64,000 bases of DNA, taken from assembly GCA_963749445.1 (NCBI GenBank), contig CAVVMJ010000005.1, forward strand, positions 98,915 to 162,914, in the 5' to 3' direction. This stretch comes from an uncultured bacterium (GTDB lineage: Bacteria; Patescibacteriota; Doudnabacteria; UBA920). Positions 1 to 64,000 of this stretch are shown here, piece by piece. The notes beneath the pieces are model-generated. The model was given only the letters and a program-made list of their open reading frames with translations, did no database searches and had not been told where the DNA came from. The first letter of the stretch is position 1. Each line of letters begins with the position of its first letter. The translations under genes were made by a program, and so were the position numbers.

Positions 1-2417
1 AAAACTCATCTGTACTGAAATATTGCAGATGTTTTTTTGTTATTTGTAAATCTTCGATTTTCGGGATTAGTACCGCTACTGAACCATCCATTATTGAGTT
101 ATTGGGTAAGAATGTTGCCCGTGGGTTATAGGAAAGATTGGGAACCAAAACAGCATTATTATTATTTAGGAATTTAGCAATAGCAAACGAATCAATGTTA
201 TTTATATATGAATCATAACCTTTAATGTCTACGACTCCCTGATTAACAATGTTTCTTGACTTCAGAACCCTAATTTTCCCCTCACTTGATGTATGCTTTT
301 TTGTTATTTGACGGTCACGGTAAGCCTTAAAAATATTAAACTTTAATTTTTTAGCTACTTTATCAAAAAAGTTTTCCCTATATATTAACCAGCAAGGGAA
401 TTCTTTTGAAAATATATAATCCTGCCTCTTACTTTCTATCTTATTATTTATAAGGGATTCTATCTTGATAAAATTATCTAGAGGTATTTTTTTTGTTTCA
501 AAAAGTATGCTTATAGTTTCAATTTTGACGCCTTTAAAGCCTTTTTCCCCGTAGTCAAAAATTTTATTAAATTTATATTGAGATAAAAGCTCTCTGGTCT
601 TATTAAATTCTGGGGCGGAAAGTAGGCTTTTTGGAGTAATTAAAGCAACAAAAGAGCCAAGTTTGTTAGCTTTTTCAATAAAGAAAGAGAATAAGTTATT
701 TGTATCTTGATTAAAAGATTGGGATTTATATTTGATGGACAAATTTTTGTCAGTAACCTTGCCGAATGGAGGATTACCCACAACTATGTCATAAGTTTCT
801 TTAAAATCATGCAATAAAAAATCATCATTTATAAAATTTATTTTAATATTTTCCGGTATACTTATTTTTTTTAACAAAACTTTTAAAGACTTTAAAACTT
901 CATTGTCAATATCTACAACATCAATTTCAACTTTTGGAACGCCAGAGTATTTTTTTATAAGGCAAGGCAAAAAATTACCCATACCCACTGATGGCTCAAG
1001 TATTTTTAGATATTCAAATTTATCAGCATCTGGTAAATCTTTAATTAGGGAATAGCAAATATCTTGCCTTGTATAATAAGCAGCCGTTTTTAGCCTTTGA
1101 GCGTTTGCTAATTCATAAATTCGTGAAAGTTGCGAGTAAGAATAAGCGTCCAAATTTTTAATTAGGAATTCATTTAGGTTACCATTATTAAGCAAGCTAT
1201 TTTGCTCTATAATCTTATTTATCTCTTGCTCTGAAAAATTAGCATTAATCAATGCAGTTTTTATATTTTGTGCTAATTGCCTAAAAATGATAGTAGGAAC
1301 AGCTTCACCAAGACATTGTCTTATGTTCATTTCTTCAGAATAGAGATATTTTTTCTTAGATTTTTCATCTAATTTATTTAGTTCCGGGTAATTTTTTTCC
1401 GACCACTTAAAATCATCGGGAATAGACATAAGCCTCATTAATTCCCTTATACTAAATACCCTATTATCTTTTGGGTGCACAGTTACCTGACTGGCTAAAA
1501 TATCGTTTCTCGTATGTACGCAAGGACCGACTTTATCCCAATAGGCACGAGTATACTTGTCGCCATTTTTATTTGTATTGGATACAATTTTCCCGTCAAT
1601 GATTTGGTGGGGTCTCTTTTTAGGATCTTCGTTATCAAATGCTGACTGACCCTCTTTGGTGTCTTTAATCCAATCCAACATTTTTTCTGTATATGGCCTA
1701 AAGTTATGGTAGATATCTTTGTCCCAGATTTCTCCCATATTATTTAAAGATGGTAAATCGCCGATAACTTCCCTAACAGTTCGTTCCTTAGTAAGAGAGG
1801 GTAATATTTCATATGGATTAACATCAGACTGGTCTTTTCTAACTCCAATCACAAGAGTCCTAGTCCTGCTAGATGGATTTCCGTATTCCTTAAAATTTAA
1901 AACTTTGTAAATAATATTATACGTTTCATCCAAATTGTTACCGATGGCTTCCTTAATACTTTTGTCTTTGCCGTCTATATCCGTACAAATAGTATTTAGA
2001 AAAGCTCTAACATTTTCAAGAATAAAAAATTTAGGATTAATTTCTTTTATTAATTTTAGCGACTCAATAACTAAAGAATTTCTGCCAAGCTCATTTTTTT
2101 TCTTATGATTTGCCACTGACATTCCTTGACAGGGAGGGGTCGCTATAATTACATCAATATCCTTGATGTTTTCTTTTTCTTTCCATAGAGTCAATTCCTT
2201 ATAGATTTTATTTTTAACCTCAGACAATATTAAATCACCAGAAATATAACCTGTGTCATATTTGCATTTCTGGTTGTGCTTTTGCACATTTAGCCTTTTT
2301 TCTATCAGTTCTGAGGTGGCAACACAGCCAAAACCCTCAAGCTTGAAGCCATAACAGCCCACGCCCGCACTACTAAATAGGCTTATATATGTTAATTTTT
2401 GTTTCTTTTGTAGCATA
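1..2417 (-). CDS. Fused DNA methyltransferase: N-terminal C5-cytosine MTase domain plus C-terminal gamma-class N6-adenine MTase domain (type IIS/IIG-style M subunit); C-terminus runs off window start
   Basis: Hand translation of the minus strand from ATG 2415-2417 gives MLQKKQKLTYISLFSSAGVGCYGFK (motif I) and ATPPCQGMS (PCQ, motif IV). It continues through FFILENVRAFL (ENV, motif VI), RTLVIGVRKD, TRNDILASQ and RQCLGEAVP (motif X). The second domain shows AAYYTRQDI and LEPSVGMGNFLP (N6A motifs X and I) then VVGNPPFGK (NPPF motif IV). The frame stays open to position 1. It is absent from the ORF track because it is incomplete. Region is about 30% GC versus about 50% elsewhere. Confidence 0.8.
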
Positions 2418-2676
2418 ATAACTCCTTTCAATTATAGATGATTTATGAGTTTTTTGGAAGGAGTGGACTATCGTTCACCTTTATATTATAAATTATAATC
2501 TTAATATTGCAAAATTCACAAAAACCCTTTAAAATTAAGTAAATTTGTATAAATATTTAAGTTATACACACCCCACTGAGGGGCTTTTTTATCTATGCCA
2601 CACAGGTTCGGACGTCGTTCAGGAGGCCGAGCCACAAAAGTCGCCATTTAGGCGGTTTTTTGGTAAGATAAAGTAT

Positions 2677-3066
2677 ATGGCACAAAAGATAAATAAATTC
2701 ATTTATTGGACGCCAAGAATTCTGTCAATAATATTTATATGTTTTTTGGCGTTATTTTCGTTTGATGTGATTACTCCTGAATTAAGTTTTTGGCAGATAG
2801 CCGTTGGATTGTTTATGCACAATATCTCGGTATTTATTTTATTGGCTGCCCTGATAATATCCTGGAAACATGAGATTGTCGGAGGAATCGTTTTTATTTT
2901 AGCGGGATTACTGTACATTATTTTTGCGGTACAACGTGCGCCCGGATGGCATATGGTCTTGATTTGGAGCCTAATGATTGCCGGCCCCGCGTTTTTTATA
3001 GGAATTCTATTTATTATTAATTGGCGCAAAAAACGAAATAATCATAATGATGTTTCCGTAAAATAG
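2677..3066 (+). CDS. small integral membrane protein (about 4 TM helices); ORF track start 2545 is probably too far upstream
   Basis: Track ORF 2545..3066. Hydrophobic stretches ILSIIFICFLALFSF, ISVFILLAALIISW, IVFILAGLLYIIF and LIWSLMIAGPAFFIGILFII. A hairpin plus T-run at about 2566-2600 lies inside the 5' extension. Confidence 0.45.
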   Translation: MAQKINKFIYWTPRILSIIFICFLALFSFDVITPELSFWQIAVGLFMHNISVFILLAALIISWKHEIVGGIVFILAGLLYIIFAVQRAPGWHMVLIWSLMIAGPAFFIGILFIINWRKKRNNHNDVSVK

Positions 3067-3166
3067 GTTCTAATGCCGTCCACGATGCTGAAAGATTTGC
3101 CTAAGATAGTTATGCGGAATTGCGGGGATCAGGGGTAATCAAACTTCGTTAGTCCGCACCATGCCT

Positions 3167-3213
3167 TAGAAGCGCTTCGTTTGGTCCTATTCCACTCGAA
3201 GCGCTTCTTTTTT
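3167..3213 (+). terminator. rho-independent terminator after membrane-protein gene
   Basis: agaagcgcttcg ... cgaagcgcttct perfect 12-bp stem followed by TTTTTTGT. Confidence 0.6.
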
Positions 3214-3331: not shown

Positions 3332-4219
3332 TCATCTGGTTCTCGGTTTGTCGGAGAACCAGAACATATTGGGGATTGTCTGGCACTCTCCGTCCTCGAA
3401 ACAGAGCACCACATCAGCGGGATGCTGTGGACCGTTATAGTCCGGCCCCACCACCGCGTCTACGACGAACACCAGCTCGCCATCCTGGTTGGTGGTGACG
3501 GGTCCCTGTTGCCACCAGTACCAGGGGTTGCCCACAAATGTGTGAACAACTCTGTTAGGTGGAAGATTTCCTAACAGCTTGGCCGAAGAGGTAGTTTCGT
3601 TAATCGGGAAAGTCTGCACCCCCGACACAAAATGCAACCCTTTTCCGCTTGGCCCTGTCCGATTGAGGAAAACCCGCGAAACAAGAGGCTGCTGAAGCAG
3701 GCGTCCGCCTTCTGCGTCCACAATTGAGACTTCCACAACATACTCGCCGTACTTCTGGTTTCCGTACCGGTTGAACTGGTAGGACAAAAGCGTCACCAGT
3801 TCGAACCCACCAAAACCTCCCTTATAAAAACCCCAGGAACCGTTGTCTGGCTCGAAGTACAAAGGCTGGACGCTCCCGTCGTAATAGCCGTTGTCCCCGG
3901 GCAGCAAAACCTGCCCGTAAATTTGGGCGTTGATGGCAAGGCCGATGGTGCCTTGCACAAAGATCAGTCTCGGCACCATCGTGTCGCCAACCTCAAAGGC
4001 TTGTTTGCCGGTGTAGAGATACGCCAAGAAATGCGTGTCCGGCGCTGAAACGCCAGCTCCCCGCGCATTAATGCTGTAGGCGGGATGCGCGGTGTAAAAC
4101 TCCTGCGCACTTTGGCGACGAGGCCGGATCATGGGGTCCAACCTCGTTTGGGCGCTGACCAGCACGGCGGCGGCCAGCAGAATCGCGGCGAGCGCCGCTA
4201 GGAACTTTGCGTTCTTCAT
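3332..4219 (-). CDS. secreted hypothetical protein (signal peptide MKNAKFLAALAAILLAAAVLVSAQ)
   Basis: 295-aa ORF with N-terminal signal peptide. No recognisable catalytic motif. Confidence 0.55.
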   Translation of the reverse strand: MKNAKFLAALAAILLAAAVLVSAQTRLDPMIRPRRQSAQEFYTAHPAYSINARGAGVSAPDTHFLAYLYTGKQAFEVGDTMVPRLIFVQGTIGLAINAQIYGQVLLPGDNGYYDGSVQPLYFEPDNGSWGFYKGGFGGFELVTLLSYQFNRYGNQKYGEYVVEVSIVDAEGGRLLQQPLVSRVFLNRTGPSGKGLHFVSGVQTFPINETTSSAKLLGNLPPNRVVHTFVGNPWYWWQQGPVTTNQDGELVFVVDAVVGPDYNGPQHPADVVLCFEDGECQTIPNMFWFSDKPRTR

Positions 4220-8709: not shown

Positions 8710-9933
8710 CTAATTGTCTTTGCCGTTTTTGTTGCCGCTTCCGTTTTGGCTGCTTCCGTTATGCCCATCGCCGCCGCGTGAATTGCCGTCGGATGAAGAG
8801 CCGGAAGAGTTTGCGGAATTGGTGACCGCGGAATGGATGATAACCGCGTTGTCGCTGCCACCGGAAGAACCGCCTCCGGAAGTTGTAATATTAGCGCCGT
8901 CATCGCCGCCGATGTTGCCGGTATTGCCACCGGTATTGCCATGGGAGGAGCCGGAGTCATCGCCGCCAATTTCGTTCCCATCACCGCCGCCATTGCCATT
9001 TTTGCCTTGTTGGTAAATTACCAATTTGCCGTTTTGGACAATGTAGATGGTCGGGTTGCCCTCAAGCTGCACCAGCGTGCCGTTGGGCAATAAGAGAGGC
9101 GTTGAAGGGCTGTTTCCCACATTAATCTGCGTGCTGGTGGCGTTGGCCAAGCCGGTTGATTGGGCGGAGAGCTCAATGACAGCCGGCTGGCTAAAGCTTA
9201 GGCCGGTAAAACCGGATAAGCCCGCGGCATCGGCCATTGTTGTCGTTCCGTTAAGGATGCCAGGGGTGCCGCTGATCAAGACTGAAGAAAGAGTGACGTT
9301 TCTGGCGTTGTCAGCGGTTACCGTATTGCCGAACTGGTCCTCTACGGCAACTTGGGCGGAAAAATTGGAACTTACCGTGGTGGTGGCTGGCGGCTCGGCG
9401 GAAAAACCAAGCATACTGGCCGCTCCGGGAACCTGGGTCAATGTTCCAAAGTTGGTGGAGGAAGCGACGCCGTTAATGCTGCCGGCTGACATGGTGATGT
9501 TGCCTAAAGCCAAAGGCGTGCCGGACGCGGCTTTGACCTTAAGCGGCACTATGGAGCCGACTGTTAAGCTGCCCGGCGCGGTGGAAGTGGAGGTAATGTT
9601 CAGGCTAAAATGCGTGACATCAGGAAAACTCACGGTGGAAGAACTTGCCATAAGGCCGGTTCCGGTGAGGCTGACATTGGCCGAGGAAGCCGTGTCAAAC
9701 ACAAAACCCGAAGGCAATGCCCAGGTTTGAGTTCCGGTGTGGATGTCGCCTGCCGCGTCTTCCGTAACGGTTATCGCCGGCAAGGCGACCGAAGCGCCGG
9801 TCGAGCTGTCGGAAGAAATGCTGGCCGTAGCCGGACTGCTAACTGTGCTCGCGGCTTGCGCGAGCATTCCGCTAAAACCCACTCCGGCAATTAGCGCCAG
9901 AGCGGATCCTATAATGGATATTTTTTTTAACAT
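8710..9933 (-). CDS. secreted surface protein with Gly/Ser/Asn-rich low-complexity C-terminus
   Basis: Signal peptide MLKKISIIGSALALIAGVGFSGMLAQA. C-terminal GGDGNEIGGDDSGSS... Antisense ORFs in this region are spurious. Confidence 0.55.
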   Translation of the reverse strand: MLKKISIIGSALALIAGVGFSGMLAQAASTVSSPATASISSDSSTGASVALPAITVTEDAAGDIHTGTQTWALPSGFVFDTASSANVSLTGTGLMASSSTVSFPDVTHFSLNITSTSTAPGSLTVGSIVPLKVKAASGTPLALGNITMSAGSINGVASSTNFGTLTQVPGAASMLGFSAEPPATTTVSSNFSAQVAVEDQFGNTVTADNARNVTLSSVLISGTPGILNGTTTMADAAGLSGFTGLSFSQPAVIELSAQSTGLANATSTQINVGNSPSTPLLLPNGTLVQLEGNPTIYIVQNGKLVIYQQGKNGNGGGDGNEIGGDDSGSSHGNTGGNTGNIGGDDGANITTSGGGSSGGSDNAVIIHSAVTNSANSSGSSSDGNSRGGDGHNGSSQNGSGNKNGKDN

Positions 9934-56294: not shown

Positions 56295-59200
56295 GTGGAC
56301 GAGAATTTGAAAGAAAATTTTGATTCGTTCTTAAGCCTCGCGGAAGCGAGCAAGCTAACAGGGTACCACCAGGATTACCTTGGTTTTTTGTGCCGCACCG
56401 GCAAGCTCCAGGGATTTAAAATTGGCAGGAACTGGACGACGACCAAACAAGCCTTGGATGAGTTCATTAAAAACTATAAAAACGGGGTTAGCGAAATCGT
56501 TGATGAAACAGGCAGGAAGATCCCCGTTAAGGTAGAACGCCTAGCCCCTCAAGTTGTCATCGCGGATTTGCCCGCGGGGCAACCTCCAATTGCGGCGGGT
56601 CTTGTTTTTTCGCAGGGCGCAACTCCACAGCCGCAGGAAGTTTTGCCCGCTGCGCTTAATTCCAGTTTAGAGCTTAGGCACCTCCGCAGAGACGTCATTG
56701 ATGAAATTGACAAAAAGGTGCAGAACTTGTCCGCTAGCGTGGAAAAGATTGAAACCCAAACTCAGGAACAGGCGAAACAGTTAGAGGCAAATAAACAACA
56801 AATACTGGCAGTTGTCCCGGTGGCGGAAACGGCGCCGCAAGTACCGTCAACCGCGGCAGCGATAAACAATTTTGCCGAAGAAGACGAGTACGTCAAAAAA
56901 GAACGGCAGCGATTCAGCAACAAGTTTGCTTCCAATTTTGATTTCGGAACCGCGGATATTCACCCGACTACGCCAAGGCTTCGTCGGGCAAGCGCGGAAC
57001 CAGAACGCGGAACATACGCGGATCAATCCAAGTTCGCGCTGGGGAAGGAAAAAGTCAAACAACTTTACGGAAGCTTTACAAAAAAGAGCCGCATAGATTT
57101 TAACCGGGTCGGCGCGTACGCCTTGGTTGCAATAATTTTGGCGCTGTTTATGGGATCGGTGTTCTGGAGAAATTTGTTTAATAATCTGTCCGGCAATCAG
57201 CGGCCGCAGGAAATGAAAATTGTTTACCAGAACAATAATAGCGGCAAGCAGCCAGCGGTAAGCAATCAGCAGCCCGGCGCGGGTCAGGGCGGAACCACCA
57301 TCGTTAACAAAACCGTCAACCAGCTGCTCGGCTTTTCCGACGCGGACTTGTACAGCCTGATAGATAACCGTTTAAACCAATATTTGGCCGAAGGAAGATT
57401 CAAAGGACCCAAAGGGGACCAGGGGCTGCCGGGGCTGCCGGGCGGAGCCACCTACGTAGCGTCAAACCCCGCGACCGGCTTTTCCGGCGGCAGCATTGGC
57501 GGGACAACCTATCTTTCTTCCCAGGATTTTGCCACAAATAACATTACGGTTAACATCAGCCTTACGGACAACGGCACGGCGGTTTTTAACGGGTACGCGA
57601 CTTTTAACGGGAACACAAACTTAAGCGGCACTACGACCATTGCGAATTTGAACGTTGCCAATATTAATCCGAATTTTACCCAGGGCAGCGTGGTGTTCCA
57701 GGGATTAAACGGGCTGGCGCAGGACAACGCGAATTTTTATTGGGACAGCGTAAATCATCGCCTTGGCATAGGCACCACCACCCCGGAATTCGCTTTGGAT
57801 GTTAATGGCGTCGTGAACGCGCAGGCCTTGTACGTTAACGGCACGCCGTATATCGGCAGCCAGTGGATTTCCACCAGCACGGGAATTTATTTTGCTTCCG
57901 GCAATGTGGGTATTGGCACGACTTCGGCTTCAAGCACGATGCTAACTGTGGCGGGCGACACATCGGTATTCGGCAATTTGGCGGTGGCCGGGACATCGTC
58001 GCTGGCTTCGGCAATTGTTGGCAACCTCACAGTTACGGGCACATCAACACTTGATAGGACGTATACGATAGAATTGGCCGTATCGGACTTATCAACGCTG
58101 GCTACAACTTCAGTAACCAGTTTGGCGGTATCGGGAATCTCGTCACTCGCGACCACCACCATCAGCAACCTTACTTTAACCCAGCCGCTGTCTTTGTCGT
58201 CAGGGGGCTTAGGGTTTGATTCGTCGGCTATTCAAAAGGGCGGGCTGTTGGCCGGAACGGGCAACGGAAGTTTTGGCATCCAGCCGGTCGGCAGCGACGG
58301 CTTGTGCTTGCTGGCTTCTTCCACCGCGCCGTCGGGAATGGCCTGGACTGATTGCGCCGTGGCGGCCAATGCCATTACTTCGTTAAACGGTCTGACCAAT
58401 CCGGTGCAGACTTTTGCCACGGGCAGCGACATCAACATCGGTTTGAATATAACCTCCAGCGGATCCACTCACACTTTTACGCCGACTTTTACCGGCACCT
58501 TGGCCGCCAATCGCTTAAACAGCAACGTGGTGCAGGGGATTACGAATGACACAAACATTACCGGCTCAATTTTAAACCAGGTTTTGACTTTGGGCTGGAA
58601 CGGGCAACTTTCCGCGGCGCGCGGCGGCACTGGCACCAACACTTTGGCTTCCTTGACCGTCGGCAGCAACTTAAACATCAGCGGAGGACAGAATGTCCTT
58701 ATCGGCACTTCCACCCAGATTACGTTATCAAACAATCCGTCCTTTACTTCTATCACCGCCACTGCTTCTTCTTCCTTGGGCAATGCCACGGCCACGGCTT
58801 TTTCCGCCACGACCTTTAACGGCAACACCCTGACTGCCGGCTCCGGTACTCTGACTTTGAATAACAACACTTTGTCTTTGCAGGGCGGCAACACTACACT
58901 GGTTGGCATCAATTCCATCACAAGTTCAACGATAGCCACCTCCACCGTTGGCACTTCCACCATCTCCGGCTTTTTGGCCTTAAACTCCACCACCACCAAT
59001 TCCAACATCAGCGGTTCAACCGTCAACAACGTCACCATCCAGGGCAACAGCAATACCTTAACCCTGCTGGGTACTTCTTCCATTGACCAATCCGTCACCA
59101 CCACCTCCACTCCGACCTTTGCCGGCCTCACCGTCAACGGCCCCGCCTCGGCACAATCTTTGATGGTGACGGGCAACTTAACCGCCACGGGTTCGACTAC

Positions 59201-62200
59201 GCTCGCCGCCTTGACGGCCGGCACGTTGGCCGTAACAGGTTCGACTACGCTCACTGTCTTAAATACGACCGGCGCCGTAACCTTTGCCTCTCCCACTACC
59301 ATCATCAACACCGTTACTTATCTCTGGCCGTCTATCCAGGGCGCGGCCAATACTTTTTTGATGGATAACGGTTCAGGAACGTTATCCTGGTCTGCCGCTT
59401 CCACCACCCTGTCCGGTTACGCCTGGATGCTGGGCGGCAACACCTTAACAGCTACCGGCACCTTTGGCACGCTCTCCAACAATGACTTAAACATCATTAC
59501 CAACTCCACCACTAGGATGACCATCCTCTCCGGCGGCAACGTCGGCATCGGCTCGTCCGCCCCAGCTTCCCTGCTGGATGTTTTTGGGACGGCCCAACTC
59601 CGAGGCGCGTCAAACCAAATTGGATTGTATGTCAATTCGTCAGGGAATGTTGGGGTGGGGACGACTTCTCCGGTTGCCCTGTTCAGCGTCAGCGGCAATG
59701 AATTCATCGCCGGATCTTCCACCATAACCAACCTTAACCAAGCCCTGCCCGTGCGTTCTACCGCGGGCGGCGCCCTGTTCAACGGCGCCGTTGCTTTGGG
59801 CTCTTCCGATGTCACCGGCATCCTGCCTATCCTTAACGGCGGCACCGGAGCTTCCACTCTGGCCGGAGCCAACATCGTCACGGCCAACGCCTCAGCCGGC
59901 CAGGTCCCTTACTTTACCGCCCCGACCACCCAAGCCGGCTCTGCCAACTTCCTTTGGAACAATACCAGCAACCTGCTGACCGTCAACGGCACCATTAACG
60001 CCACCACCTCCAACTTTACCAACCTGAACGCTTCCTCCACGGTTTTGACCAACGCCACGACCACGGGCCAATCGGTTCTTTTGGGACAAACCAACGGCAA
60101 GCTGCTGGCTTTAGACCAAAACGGAATCATCATCTCCACTTCCACCGCCTACCAGACCGCCTTGAGCAATCCCGATACCGGCACGGGAGCCTCGCCGCAA
60201 ATCGCTTATTGGTCAAGCGCGACCGGACTGACGGGCGCGTCCGGCTTCCTATGGGACAACTCAAATACCAGAATGGTGGTCAACGGCACGATCAACGCCA
60301 GCAGCACCAACTTTACCAATGCCACCACCAGCCAACTGTTTGTCACCGGTTCTACTAACGGCAAATTAGCCGCTTTGGACGCTAATGGAATGCTCATCGG
60401 TACTTCCACCGCTTACCAAGTGGCCGGCTCTTACCTTACCACCATCGGCAGCGGCTCTTCCTCCACCATCCCTTATTTCACGGCTACGGCCAACACTTTG
60501 CAGGGGTCTAACAACTTATCCTTCAACGGTTCAAATTTAGTTTTGAACGGAACGATTTACGCCACTTCCTCCAACTTTACCAACGCCACTACATCCCAAT
60601 TATTCGTAACGGGACAGACGGGTAAGTTGGCCGCGCTTGACGCCAACGGGATGCTGATAGCGACTTCCACCAGCTATCAGACCGCCCTGACCAATCCCGA
60701 TACCGGCACGGGAGCCTCGCCGCAAATCGCTTATTGGTCAAGCGCGACCGGACTGACGGGCGCGTCCGGCTTCCTTTGGGACAACTCAAATACCAGAATG
60801 GTGGTCAACGGCACCATCAACGCCACCTCCTCCAACTTCACCAACTTAAACGCTTCCTCCACCGTCTTAACCAACTCTACCACCACAAACCAGTCCGTCT
60901 TCTCCGCCATTACCGGCCCCACCTTCCTGGCCTTAGACTCCAACCATATCCTAATGGCCACTTCCACCCCGGTGTTAACGGTTACCGGCTCCGGTTCCCT
61001 CACTTCCACCGGCGGCACCTCCCCGAATATCGCCTTGGTCACCCTGGCTAACAACGCCGTCCTCTTTGGCCAAGGCAGCGCCACCATCGGCACTTCCACC
61101 AACTTTTCCTGGCTTAACGGCCAAAACCTCTTTAGCGTCAACGGCACCATCAACGCCACCTCCTCGCTGTTCACCAACGCCACTTCCAGCAACCTGGCCG
61201 CCACCTCCTTAACCTCCGCCCTGCCGGTCAGGAGCACCACCGCCGGCTACCTCTACAACGGCGCGATTAACCTTAGCTCCGGCTCCTCTGACATTACTGG
61301 CACTCTGGCCATCGGCAGCGGCGGCACCGGCGCCACCACTCTGGCCGGCGCCAACATCGTCACGGCCAACGCCTCAGCCGGCCAGGTCCCCTTACTTTAC
61401 CGCCCCGACCACCCAAGCCGGCAGTGCCAACTTCCTTTGGAACAATACTTCCAACCTGTTAACCATCAACGGCACCATCAACGCCAGCACCTCCAACTTT
61501 ACCAACCTGAACGCCTCCTCCACGGTTTTGACCAACGCGACAACGACAGGCCAGCAGTTCATTCTGGGGCAGACTAACGGGAAACTATTGGCCCTTGACC
61601 AAAACGGCATGGTCATTTCCACTTCTACCGCCTACATCACCACCGCCAACGTCTCCGGCGCCTCGCCCCAGGTGGCCGTGTTTGCCGGAGCCAATACGGT
61701 TAACGGATACAGCGGCTTCCTTTGGGACAACTCAAATACCAGAATGGTGGTCAACGGCACCATCAACGCCACCTCCTCCAACTTCACCAACTTAAACGCT
61801 TCCTCCACCGTCTTAACCAACTCTACCACCACAAACCAGTCCGTCTTCTCCGCCATTACCGGCCCCACCTTCCTGGCCTTAGACTCCAACCATATCCTAA
61901 TGGCCACTTCCACCCCGGTGTTAACGGTTACCGGCTCCGGTTCCCTCACTTCCACCGGCGGCACCTCCCCGAATATCGCCTTGGTCACCCTGGCTAACAA
62001 CGCCGTCCTCTTTGGCCAAGGCAGCGCGACCATCGGCACTTCCACCAACTTTTCCTGGCTTAACGGCTCTAATCTCTTTAGCGTCAACGGCACCATCAAC
62101 GCCACCTCCTCGCTGTTCACCAACTCTACCACCACAAACCAGTCCGTCTTCTCCGCCATTACCGGCCCCACCTTCCTGGCTTTAGACTCCAACCATATCC

Positions 62201-64000
62201 TAATGGCCACTTCCACCCCGGTCCTGGCAGTTACCGGCTCCGGAAACATCGCCTCTTCAGGAGGGACTTCACCTAACCTTACTTTTACCGGAACACTTCC
62301 GATACTTAACGGCGGAACAGGACAGACAACTCTGGCGGCGGCCAACATCGTCACGGCTAACGCCTCAGCCGGCCAGGTCCCTTACTTTACCGCCCCGACC
62401 ACCCAGTCAGGGAGTGCCAACTTCCTTTGGAACAATACTTCCAACCTGTTAACCATCAACGGCACCATCAACGCCAGCACCTCCAACTTCACCAACTTAA
62501 ACGCCTCCTCCACGGTCTTGACCAACGCCACGACCACGGGCCAATCGGTTCTTTTGGGACAAACCAACGGCAAGCTGCTGGCTTTAGACCAAAACGGAAT
62601 CATCATCTCCACTTCCACCGCCTACCAGACCGCCTTGAGCAATCCCGATACCGGCACGGGAGCCTCGCCGCAAATCGCTTATTGGTCAAGCGCGACCGGA
62701 CTGACGGGCGCGTCCGGCTTCCTATGGGACAACTCAAATACCAGAATGGTGGTCAACGGCACGATCAACGCCACCACCTCCAACTTCACCAACTTAAACG
62801 CTTCCTCCACCGTCTTAACCAACTCTACCACCACAAACCAGTCCGTCTTCTCCGCCATTACCGGCCCCACCTTCCTGGCCTTAGACTCCAACCATATCCT
62901 AATGGCCACTTCCACCCCGGTCCTGGCAGTTACCGGCTCCGGAAACATCGCCTCTTCAGGAGGGACTTCACCTAACCTTACTTTTACCGGAACACTTCCG
63001 ATACTTAACGGCGGAACAGGACAGACAACTTTGGCGGCGGCCAACATCGTCACGGCCAACGCCTCAGCCGGCCAGGTCCCTTACTTTACCGCCCCGACCA
63101 CCCAGTCAGGGAGTGCCAACTTCCTTTGGAACAATACTTCCAACCTGTTAACCATCAACGGCACCATCAACGCCAGCACCTCCAACTTTACCAACCTGAA
63201 CGCCTCCTCCACGGTTTTGACCAACGCCACGACCACGGGCCAATCGGTTCTTTTGGGACAAACCAACGGCAAGCTGCTGGCTTTAGACCAAAACGGAATC
63301 ATCATTTCCACTTCTACCGCCTACATCACCACCGCCAACGTCTCCGGCGCCTCGCCCCAGGTGGCCGTGTTTGCCGGAGCCAATACGGTTAACGGATACA
63401 GCGGCTTCCTTTGGGACAACTCAAATACCAGAATGGTGGTCAACGGCACGATCAACGCCACCACCTCCAACTTTACCAACTTAAACGCTTCCTCCACCGT
63501 CTTAACCAACTCTACCACCACAAACCAGTCCGTCTTCTCCGCCATTACCGGCCCCACCTTCCTGGCCTTAGACTCCAACCATATCCTAATGGCCACTTCC
63601 ACCCCGGTCCTGGCAGTTACCGGCTCCGGTTCCCTCACTTCCACCGGCGGCACCTCCCCGAATATCGCCTTGGTCACCCTGGCTAACAACGCCGTCCTCT
63701 TTGGCCAAGGCAGCGCCACCATCGGCACTTCCACCAACTTTTCCTGGCTTAACGGCTCTAATCTCTTTAGCGTCAACGGCACCATCAACGCCACCTCCTC
63801 GCTGTTCACCAACGCCACTTCCAGCAACCTGGCCGCCACCTCCTTAACCTCCGCCCTGCCGGTCAGGAGCACCACCGCCGGCTACCTCTACAACGGCGCG
63901 ATTAACCTTAGCTCCGGCTCCTCTGACATTACCGGCACTCTGGCCATCGGCAGCGGCGGCACCGGAGCTTCCACTCTGGCCGGAGCCAACATCGTCACGG
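56295..64000 (+). CDS. giant membrane-anchored protein: N-terminal HTH_17/excisionase-like domain, coiled coil, TM helix, short collagen-like GXY stretch, then >2000 aa of Thr/Ser/Asn/Gly-rich fibre-like tandem repeats; runs off window; single-base frame change at about 61386
   Basis: LSLAEASKLTGYHQDYLGFLCRTGKLQGFKIGRNWTTTKQALDEFI, TM helix VGAYALVAIILALFMGSVFW, collagen-like GPKGDQGLPGLPGG. Nested repeats of about 690 bp recur at 59880, 61350, 62340 and 63030. The copy at 61381-61391 reads GGTCCCCTTAC where the others read GGTCCCTTAC. Confidence 0.6.

Follow-up and report, generated by a model that had tools for sequence, protein, structure and literature searches.

We analyzed a 64,000-nt stretch of DNA from an uncultured bacterium of the Doudnabacteria lineage of Patescibacteriota (contig CAVVMJ010000005.1, positions 98,915 to 162,914 of the forward strand; the whole stretch is called the window here). 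Its left end carries, at 2-2416 on the minus strand, a gene for a fused C5-cytosine and N6-adenine DNA methyltransferase (MTase), and the product of this gene is probably, at about 85% in our estimation, the modification enzyme of a Type IIS restriction-modification (R-M) system that consists of two genes and belongs to the HpyAV/Hin4II family. The partner gene, convergent with the MTase gene and located just beyond the left edge of the window, is predicted to encode an HNH nuclease, and CCTTC is the predicted target of the pair. On this assignment the two genes are a Patescibacterium representative of an already characterized family, an ordinary imported defense module.

Fused cytosine and adenine methyltransferase

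Read from the ATG at 2416 to base 2, the minus-strand frame contains 805 codons and zero stops. By our own arithmetic such a run would be open by chance with a probability of ~1e-28, because ~8% of random codons are stops at this base composition. An earlier examination of the window from its letters alone (the sequence-only reading) had described an uninterrupted frame of at least 805 codons that the open reading frame list omits; the omission is due only to the frame running past the window edge. A protein-database search found an identical (100%) 836-aa protein (P0001) on a public 173,017-bp contig, so the window holds codons 1-805 of 836 and only the last 31 codons and the stop fall outside of it.

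The first half of the protein is a C5-cytosine MTase domain (aa 9-343; 1388-2392, minus strand) that matches PF00145 (E 2.7e-41), TIGR00675 dcm (112 bits against a cutoff of 100.65 in the NCBIfam scan) and the PADLOC profile PDLC03370. It contains FSSAGVGCYG (motif I, aa 14-23; 2348-2377), PPCQ (aa 94-97; catalytic PCQ at 2126-2134), ENV (aa 134-136; 2009-2017), and, past the domain boundary, RQCLGEAVP (aa 366-374). The second half, from aa 399 to the end (2-1222, minus strand), is a gamma-class N6-adenine (N6A) MTase module that includes a C-terminal target-recognition region; it matches PDLC03382 and, at aa 516-625, the Pfam family PF07669 Eco57I (E 4.7e-14; core at 542-871). Its motifs AAYYTR (aa 445-450), LEPSVGMGNFLP (motif I, aa 473-484; 965-1000) and VVGNPPFGK (aa 545-553; catalytic GNPPF at 758-784) give the order X-I-IV when read from the translation. 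All of the Dcm-type and gamma-class motifs that the sequence-only reading had quoted are present verbatim, and its two domains were recovered on these curated profiles.

Searches among proteins of known structure (PDB, phmmer) returned HaeIII/HhaI as sequence relatives of the first half and M.TaqI of the second half. In the AlphaFold model of the MTase (predicted local distance difference test (pLDDT) 72) the two cores are confident and the recognition regions weak; Foldseek paired the N-terminal half with M.HaeIII (E 1.6e-13) and the C-terminal half with CamA, M.BseCI, and M.TaqI (E 4e-15 to 1e-13). These N6A enzymes of the gamma class and the C5 enzymes M.HaeIII/M.HhaI are the best structural and sequence matches of the two halves, but all of them are stand-alone single-domain proteins with other specificities and only 15-20% identity.

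The two domains lie in one polypeptide with no stop or frameshift between them, and the fusion is not an assembly slip: a 3149-bp contig that Logan assembled independently from the same sample (run ERR10755942) agrees with window 1-2733 at 100% identity, and the same fused layout was found in more than 100 homologues of 830-860 aa with 60-65% identity in the protein-database search. In an alignment of 22 fused homologues the identity per column is 74%, recognition regions included, which argues for one shared specificity.

The combination of two chemistries in one chain had been taken in the sequence-only reading for an M subunit of a Type IIS/IIG system. The IIS part stands, with the full-length match to a PADLOC Type II MTase profile described below, whereas the IIG part does not, the polypeptide having no nuclease domain and the R gene being separate. 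That the protein itself unites nuclease and MTase in a single chain, as the bifunctional Type IIG/IIC enzymes Eco57I and MmeI do, is exceedingly improbable. The adenine half does match a Pfam family named after Eco57I; Pfam, NCBIfam, and PADLOC scans, however, found no nuclease domain in the 836-aa polypeptide, the N-terminus, where the nuclease of a IIG enzyme is positioned, is a complete C5 MTase, and a separate nuclease gene is invariably adjacent in the family.

Predicted partner nuclease beyond the left edge

The Logan contig supplies 416 bases to the left of window base 1. They contain part of a convergent gene that begins 91 nt beyond base 1 and whose stop overlaps the MTase stop by 4 nt. 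The visible part is an open C-terminal stretch of 107 aa, reading GVATHVHHIFP...ENLILLTPEQHFSKAH, in which the catalytic HH...N...H are all kept (GVATHVHHIFP...ENLILLTPEQH). It is 53% identical to the C-terminus of the 404-aa product of a gene that occupies the corresponding position in a Patescibacteria genome, and 48% identical to that of a 399-aa gene downstream of the MTase in Flavobacterium johnsoniae. We predict from these residues that the convergent neighbor encodes an HNH nuclease. The cognate nuclease thus lies past the window edge as the sequence-only reading had anticipated, while a helicase, which it had named as another possible adjacent partner, is not expected.

A scan of species-representative genomes gave 587 confirmed relatives of the MTase, of which the best 80 loci were kept. 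A nuclease homologue of ~400 aa directly adjoins the MTase in 79 of 84 loci and the other five are contig ends, so the pairing holds in 79 of 79 evaluable loci (65 co-directional, 14 convergent). The nuclease family is publicly annotated as 'hypothetical', has no Pfam domain on record and gave no match in the NCBIfam scan. Its invariant residues are H302, H303, N319, H328, and H333. The AlphaFold model of the nuclease (pLDDT 88, predicted template modeling score (pTM) 0.83) shows a beta-beta-alpha unit at residues 300-332 and a largely helical N-terminal part with winged-helix-like elements; sub-threshold matches to PF01844 (HNH) fall on the beta-beta-alpha spot in 24 of 34 members.

With only the last 107 codons visible, the MTase might be solitary by now or the system decaying, the nuclease gene having been truncated or inactivated with only methylation left. 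A natural HpyAV homologue in H. pylori G27 has a stop inside the HNH site (PMC2816704), and among the family loci L049 has no more than a fragmentary match to the nuclease. We nevertheless consider decay unlikely, as the visible 107 aa are open and retain all of the catalytic residues, the pairing with a nuclease is found at every evaluable locus, and the nuclease gene is open over the 145 codons seen next to the closest relative of the MTase (locus L086; 89% aa and 84% nt identity).

Probable assignment to the HpyAV/Hin4II family

The assignment to a Type IIS family rests first on PADLOC profiles. The MTase matches MTase_II PDLC03277 (823 positions) with aa 5-832 against positions 4-818 (E 1.8e-235); PDLC03370 (387 positions) matches the C5 half (E 9e-148) and PDLC03382 (445 positions) matches aa 399-832 (E 3.8e-96). 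The neighbor nuclease matches one PADLOC profile only, REase_II PDLC03488 (E 7.6e-85). M.HpyAV is a verified 823-aa C5+N6A fusion, and Hin4II, an isoschizomer of HpyAV, has a separate M1 of 387 aa (C5) and M2 of 445 aa (N6A) (PMC2816704). Because these lengths match exactly, we take the three profiles to be M.HpyAV, M1.Hin4II, and M2.Hin4II. HpyAV of H. pylori 26695 recognizes CCTTC and cuts at 6/5 (Chan et al., 2010, PMC2816704), and by single-molecule real-time (SMRT) sequencing two modifications, m5C on CCTTC and m6A on GAAGG, were traced to M.HpyAV (hp0054) (PMC3936762). R.HpyAV is a protein of 419 aa with the HNH catalytic residues H294, H295, N311, and H320 and an unusual metal preference, namely stimulation by Ni2+ (PMC2816704); the HH-x15-N-x8-H spacing of the nuclease family studied here (H302, H303, N319, H328) is that of R.HpyAV.

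HpyAV (hp0053 R, hp0054 M) and the pair in the window are alike in a single M polypeptide with C5 followed by gamma-class N6A (823 aa vs. 836 aa here), in an adjoining nuclease of ~400 aa with a C-terminal HNH site of identical spacing, and in CCTTC depletion in the carriers. They differ in that the R gene is co-directional and downstream in HpyAV but convergent with a 4-nt stop overlap here, and in the host, a pathogen there and a Patescibacterium here, with an MTase that shares ~60-65% identity with its nearest named relatives. Hin4II of Haemophilus influenzae RFL4 (M1 387 aa, M2 445 aa, R 418 aa) has the three activities in the same order; its MTases are encoded by separate genes, whereas here they form one fused frame. 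On a plasmid of Acinetobacter towneri the family occurs as three unfused genes (389, 449, and 405 aa), and a Psychrobacter plasmid carries a fused version. Ten putative homologous systems with fused MTases, including Bacteroides, Campylobacter, and Mycoplasma, had been listed before (PMC2816704). The fused MTase of MhoVII joins two adenine MTases and hence does not belong to the HpyAV/Hin4II family.

CCTTC avoidance and other specificities

Before the family was identified, all 4-6-letter words were ranked by observed vs. Markov-expected counts in 1.32 Mb of the 80 family loci. CCTTC/GAAGG is the most depleted of the 512 five-letter words (1730 observed vs. 2241 expected; observed/expected ratio (O/E) 0.77, z -10.8) and is observed less often than expected in 67 of the 80 loci (p 6e-10). 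By group the O/E is 0.71 in Patescibacteria-like loci, 0.62 in Campylobacterota, and 0.79 in Bacteroidota and others, while one-letter variants of CCTTC and Shine-Dalgarno-like words show no depletion in the 80 loci (O/E 0.93-1.17). In the window itself 82 CCTTC/GAAGG sites were counted; shuffles that preserve dinucleotides give 119.9 +/- 11.2, and not one of the 100 went lower. Depletion in the host window is expected under active restriction and is a further argument against a decayed nuclease. Taken with the family assignment, the word counts point indirectly to CCTTC as the predicted target of the pair.

We also considered a Type IIS system of the same layout and another specificity, either HphI-like (GGTGA), MnlI/HpyAVI-like (CCTC), or Alw26I/Esp3I-like (GTCTC). 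HphI (GGTGA 8/7) and MnlI/HpyAVI (CCTC 7/6) are similar to the pair here in that an asymmetric site receives both C5 and N6A methylation and the Type IIS nuclease has a C-terminal HNH site, but their MTase genes are separate. The HphI genes are reportedly ordered C5, N6A, R, as here. M.Alw26I and M.Esp3I (fused m6A+m5C) and Eco31I (separate M1 and M2) also place m5C and m6A on opposite strands and have an HNH nuclease (PMC4659465), so that the pairing of a cytosine and an adenine MTase with an HNH nuclease is common to all of these systems (PMC5714182, PMC4659465, PMC3936762). On the other side, the nuclease next to the fused MTase matches a single PADLOC REase_II profile, and each candidate was rejected on its own evidence. 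The HphI nuclease is Pfam HNH_2 (PF13391), which the nuclease family here does not match (of 34 members just two hit it, neither with an E below 0.075), and GGTGA/TCACC is slightly enriched in the 80 loci (O/E 1.09). For the MnlI type, the adenine MTase M1.HpyAVI is of the beta class (PMC3936762) vs. the gamma class here, and CCTC, likewise slightly enriched (O/E 1.09), is not depleted. The Alw26I/Esp3I type has the reversed domain order (N6A then C5), a size of ~1000-1070 aa and another nuclease family, against C5 then N6A in 836 aa here; a PADLOC profile of 1036 positions for a fused MTase ending in a C5 domain, which is probably of the Alw26I/Esp3I type, gave a weak partial match (aa 8-202 vs. 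positions 794-978), and GTCTC is only weakly depleted (O/E 0.87, rank 27). Such a different specificity is therefore very unlikely.

Several points weigh against the assignment to an HpyAV/Hin4II-type system with a CCTTC target. Only the C-terminal quarter (107 aa) of the host nuclease is seen, and a truncation or disruption could exist upstream. The Pfam HNH matches of the nuclease family are all below threshold (best E 0.015) and a fold search of the nuclease model against the PDB gave no significant match. The identity of the profiles with the enzymes is inferred from three exact lengths, not from a direct alignment with HpyAV or Hin4II, and at ~60-65% identity of the MTase to its nearest named relatives a shifted specificity is possible. 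The depletion tests cover carriers of the system only, with no system-lacking genomes as a negative control, and by the stricter Markov expectation the depletion in the host part of the window is modest (81 vs. 103, z -2.2, rank 24 of 512).

Apart from CCTTC, GATC is very strongly depleted in the 80 related loci (L003, L005-L084; mostly Bacteroidota and Patescibacteria flanks) with an O/E of 0.42 and z -56; many 6-bp palindromes are likewise depleted there, with no connection to the R-M system studied.

Proposed mode of action and meaning

CCTTC has no A and GAAGG has no C, so each strand needs a different chemistry. We propose that the N-terminal half of the MTase, a C5-cytosine methylase with the catalytic Cys in PPCQ, would make m5C in CCTTC, and that the C-terminal half, a TaqI/CamA-like gamma-class N6A methylase with the catalytic NPPF and its own recognition region, would make m6A in GAAGG, together shielding the host DNA in analogy with M.HpyAV. 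The nuclease of ~400 aa would combine a mostly helical, winged-helix-like DNA-binding part at the N-terminus with an HNH (beta-beta-alpha-metal) site at the C-terminus; by analogy with HpyAV it would bind unmethylated CCTTC and cut 6/5 nt downstream. In the host organism both enzymes would be active with this exact specificity and these cut positions, given a nuclease whose N-terminal ~300 aa are presumably intact. The module would have been gained horizontally, and the tract that holds it is foreign in composition to its Patescibacteria genome of ~50% GC.

The main value of these results is correct annotation: in place of the public names, which are only 'DNA cytosine methyltransferase' and 'hypothetical protein', the pair can be labeled a Type IIS system of the HpyAV/Hin4II type whose predicted target is CCTTC. 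As of 2010 the family appeared concentrated in mammal-associated pathogens and its existence elsewhere was an open question of the authors (PMC2816704); it is now seen in hundreds of environmental genomes, Patescibacteria included, CCTTC avoidance is measurable in its host genomes, and it offers many natural candidates for HpyAV isoschizomers. The understanding of how such systems work is unchanged; the finding deserves correct annotation and is not surprising.

AT-rich tract and horizontal acquisition

Computed directly, the GC content is 31.0% for window 1-2570, 38.7% for 2571-3100, and 49.6% for 3101-64000, in agreement with the ~30% vs. ~50% of the sequence-only reading. The 500-nt profile stays at 0.28-0.37 up to ~3000 and at 0.49-0.56 from ~3100. 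In sliding 2.5-kb windows the rest of the window has a mean GC of 0.494 (standard deviation (sd) 0.037, minimum 0.418), and the AT-rich tract lies ~5 sd below that mean. By composition its right edge is at ~3070-3130; the left edge is beyond the window. GC at third codon positions (GC3) is 0.28 in the MTase gene against 0.52-0.69 in 13 host genes. Genes for purine biosynthesis and for many secreted proteins lie in the remaining window, and its PurD, located on the same public 173,017-bp contig, has its best named relatives (61-72% identity) in Patescibacteria and Candidatus Doudnabacteria.

The tract (1-3100; no strand) is composite, consisting of the R-M module, from 1 to ~2570 and continuing past the left edge, and a separately foreign gene for a DUF7670 small membrane protein of 129 aa (2677-3066, plus strand; PF24709, E 1.2e-31; GC3 0.36), because the homology with L086 ends at 2570, upstream of the MTase promoter region, and the neighbors beyond differ. 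The DUF7670 gene is not present in the context of L086; it is foreign by composition yet separate from the R-M module.

Horizontal acquisition of the module, which the sequence-only reading had suggested from composition, is well supported by the GC3 shift, by the different context of L086, whose contig is uniformly ~32% GC, by the gap between module and flanks elsewhere (5-20 GC points below the flanks in most of ~80 host genomes), and by copies of related modules that occur across several phyla and also on plasmids of Acinetobacter and Psychrobacter. As for a marker of the integration site, the window has no tRNA and no Rfam element marking such a site, and a search for the empty site, in which the adjacent 295-aa host protein was compared with metagenome contigs, found no relatives.

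The AT-rich end might instead be an assembly chimera, a fragment of an AT-rich Patescibacterium joined to a 50% GC contig with no island at all. Contigs of the independent Logan assembly do end at 2733 and at 3511, positions that flank the GC transition together with the DUF7670 gene, and the closest relative of the module sits in an AT-rich contig. But the public 173,017-bp contig holds both the MTase gene and the host purD, the 2571-3100 segment is intermediate in composition and not shared with the AT-rich relative, and CCTTC is underrepresented in the host part of the window. Sharp AT-rich islands of the R-M module within flanks of 45-58% GC are moreover the rule in other genomes, isolates included, and an insertion carried by only part of the population would be just as likely to break contigs in a De Bruijn assembly. 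We regard a chimera as quite unlikely; the breaks would fit a polymorphism in the population or difficulties with repeats or coverage.

A bolder view of the imported module is that the tract is a small composite mobile defense islet of nuclease, fused MTase, and DUF7670 protein with no helix-turn-helix (HTH) controller, perhaps polymorphic in the sampled population and perhaps moving between Patescibacteria, Bacteroidota, Campylobacterota, and Moraxellaceae plasmids with no recognizable integrase or tRNA target. Polymorphism of the islet would explain the Logan breaks at 2733 and 3511, and we still hold this scenario to be rather doubtful. In a weaker variant of it, the environmental clade may have drifted to a new CCTTC-related specificity.

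Gene neighbors of related modules

Among related loci, an HTH_3 (XRE-type, controller-like) gene of ~110 aa lies directly upstream of the MTase in 25 (e.g., L071 9669-10001), a LexA-like gene, which combines LexA DNA-binding and S24 peptidase parts, directly adjoins the MTase start in nine Patescibacteria-type loci (e.g., L005 9291-9959, L003 9400-9999), and a gene of ~127 aa with no Pfam match follows the MTase or the nuclease in 18 (e.g., L082 2494-2877, L002 12418-12798); the window has none of the three. Vsr does not qualify as a conserved partner, being found near the module in two distinct loci only (L002 12846-13292, Flavobacterium johnsoniae; L067 3079-3417), where a very-short-patch repair nuclease fits active m5C methylation. 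In L086 the gene upstream of the MTase (125-1012, minus strand) encodes an unrelated 295-aa protein (MDYEIYHDESQENGYWHG...), which equals the product of the host gene at window 3332-4219 in length by coincidence and is not homologous to it.

Signals and other features in the window

Upstream of the MTase start there is a Shine-Dalgarno-like AGGAG at 2422-2426 (minus strand), 5 nt from the ATG and read directly from the sequence, and a promoter-like site at 2485-2521 (minus strand), TTGTGA-18-TATAAT or TTGCAA-16-TATAAT, with 10/12 matches in a consensus scan, which is a pattern match only. The sole CCTTC of the AT-rich tract is in this leader (2457-2461, minus strand), between the -10-like element (2485-2490) and the ribosome-binding site; it could be a coincidence (1 seen vs. 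1.9 expected) or a self-sensing site.

A smaller CCCC-loop-GGGG hairpin with a T-run occupies 2571-2592, exactly where the homology to the related module stops. The segment 2590-2670 (plus strand), just upstream of the DUF7670 start, folds strongly (minimum free energy (MFE) -37.9 kcal/mol, z -3.75 vs. shuffles) and has no Rfam match; at its end, ~2636-2661, an A-run, a 10-bp stem, and a T-run form a hairpin that resembles a bidirectional terminator. The DUF7670 gene and the 295-aa gene converge on a spacer in which the perfect palindrome GAAGCGCTTC occurs twice (~3167-3176 and ~3198-3207), the second copy followed by a T-run. Both copies are probably terminators; the only Rfam match of the spacer is weak and at chance level (RF02844, E 0.39).

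Further into the host part, a reading frame of 1760 aa with a GTG start spans 56295-61577 (plus strand), and 58000-64000 has a GC skew of -0.18 to -0.34 at 56-57% GC. The gene at 8710-9933 (minus strand) encodes a predicted secreted protein of 407 aa with no Pfam assignment on record and a long Gly/Ser/Asn-rich low-complexity tail, and several genes near it also encode lineage-specific secreted proteins.

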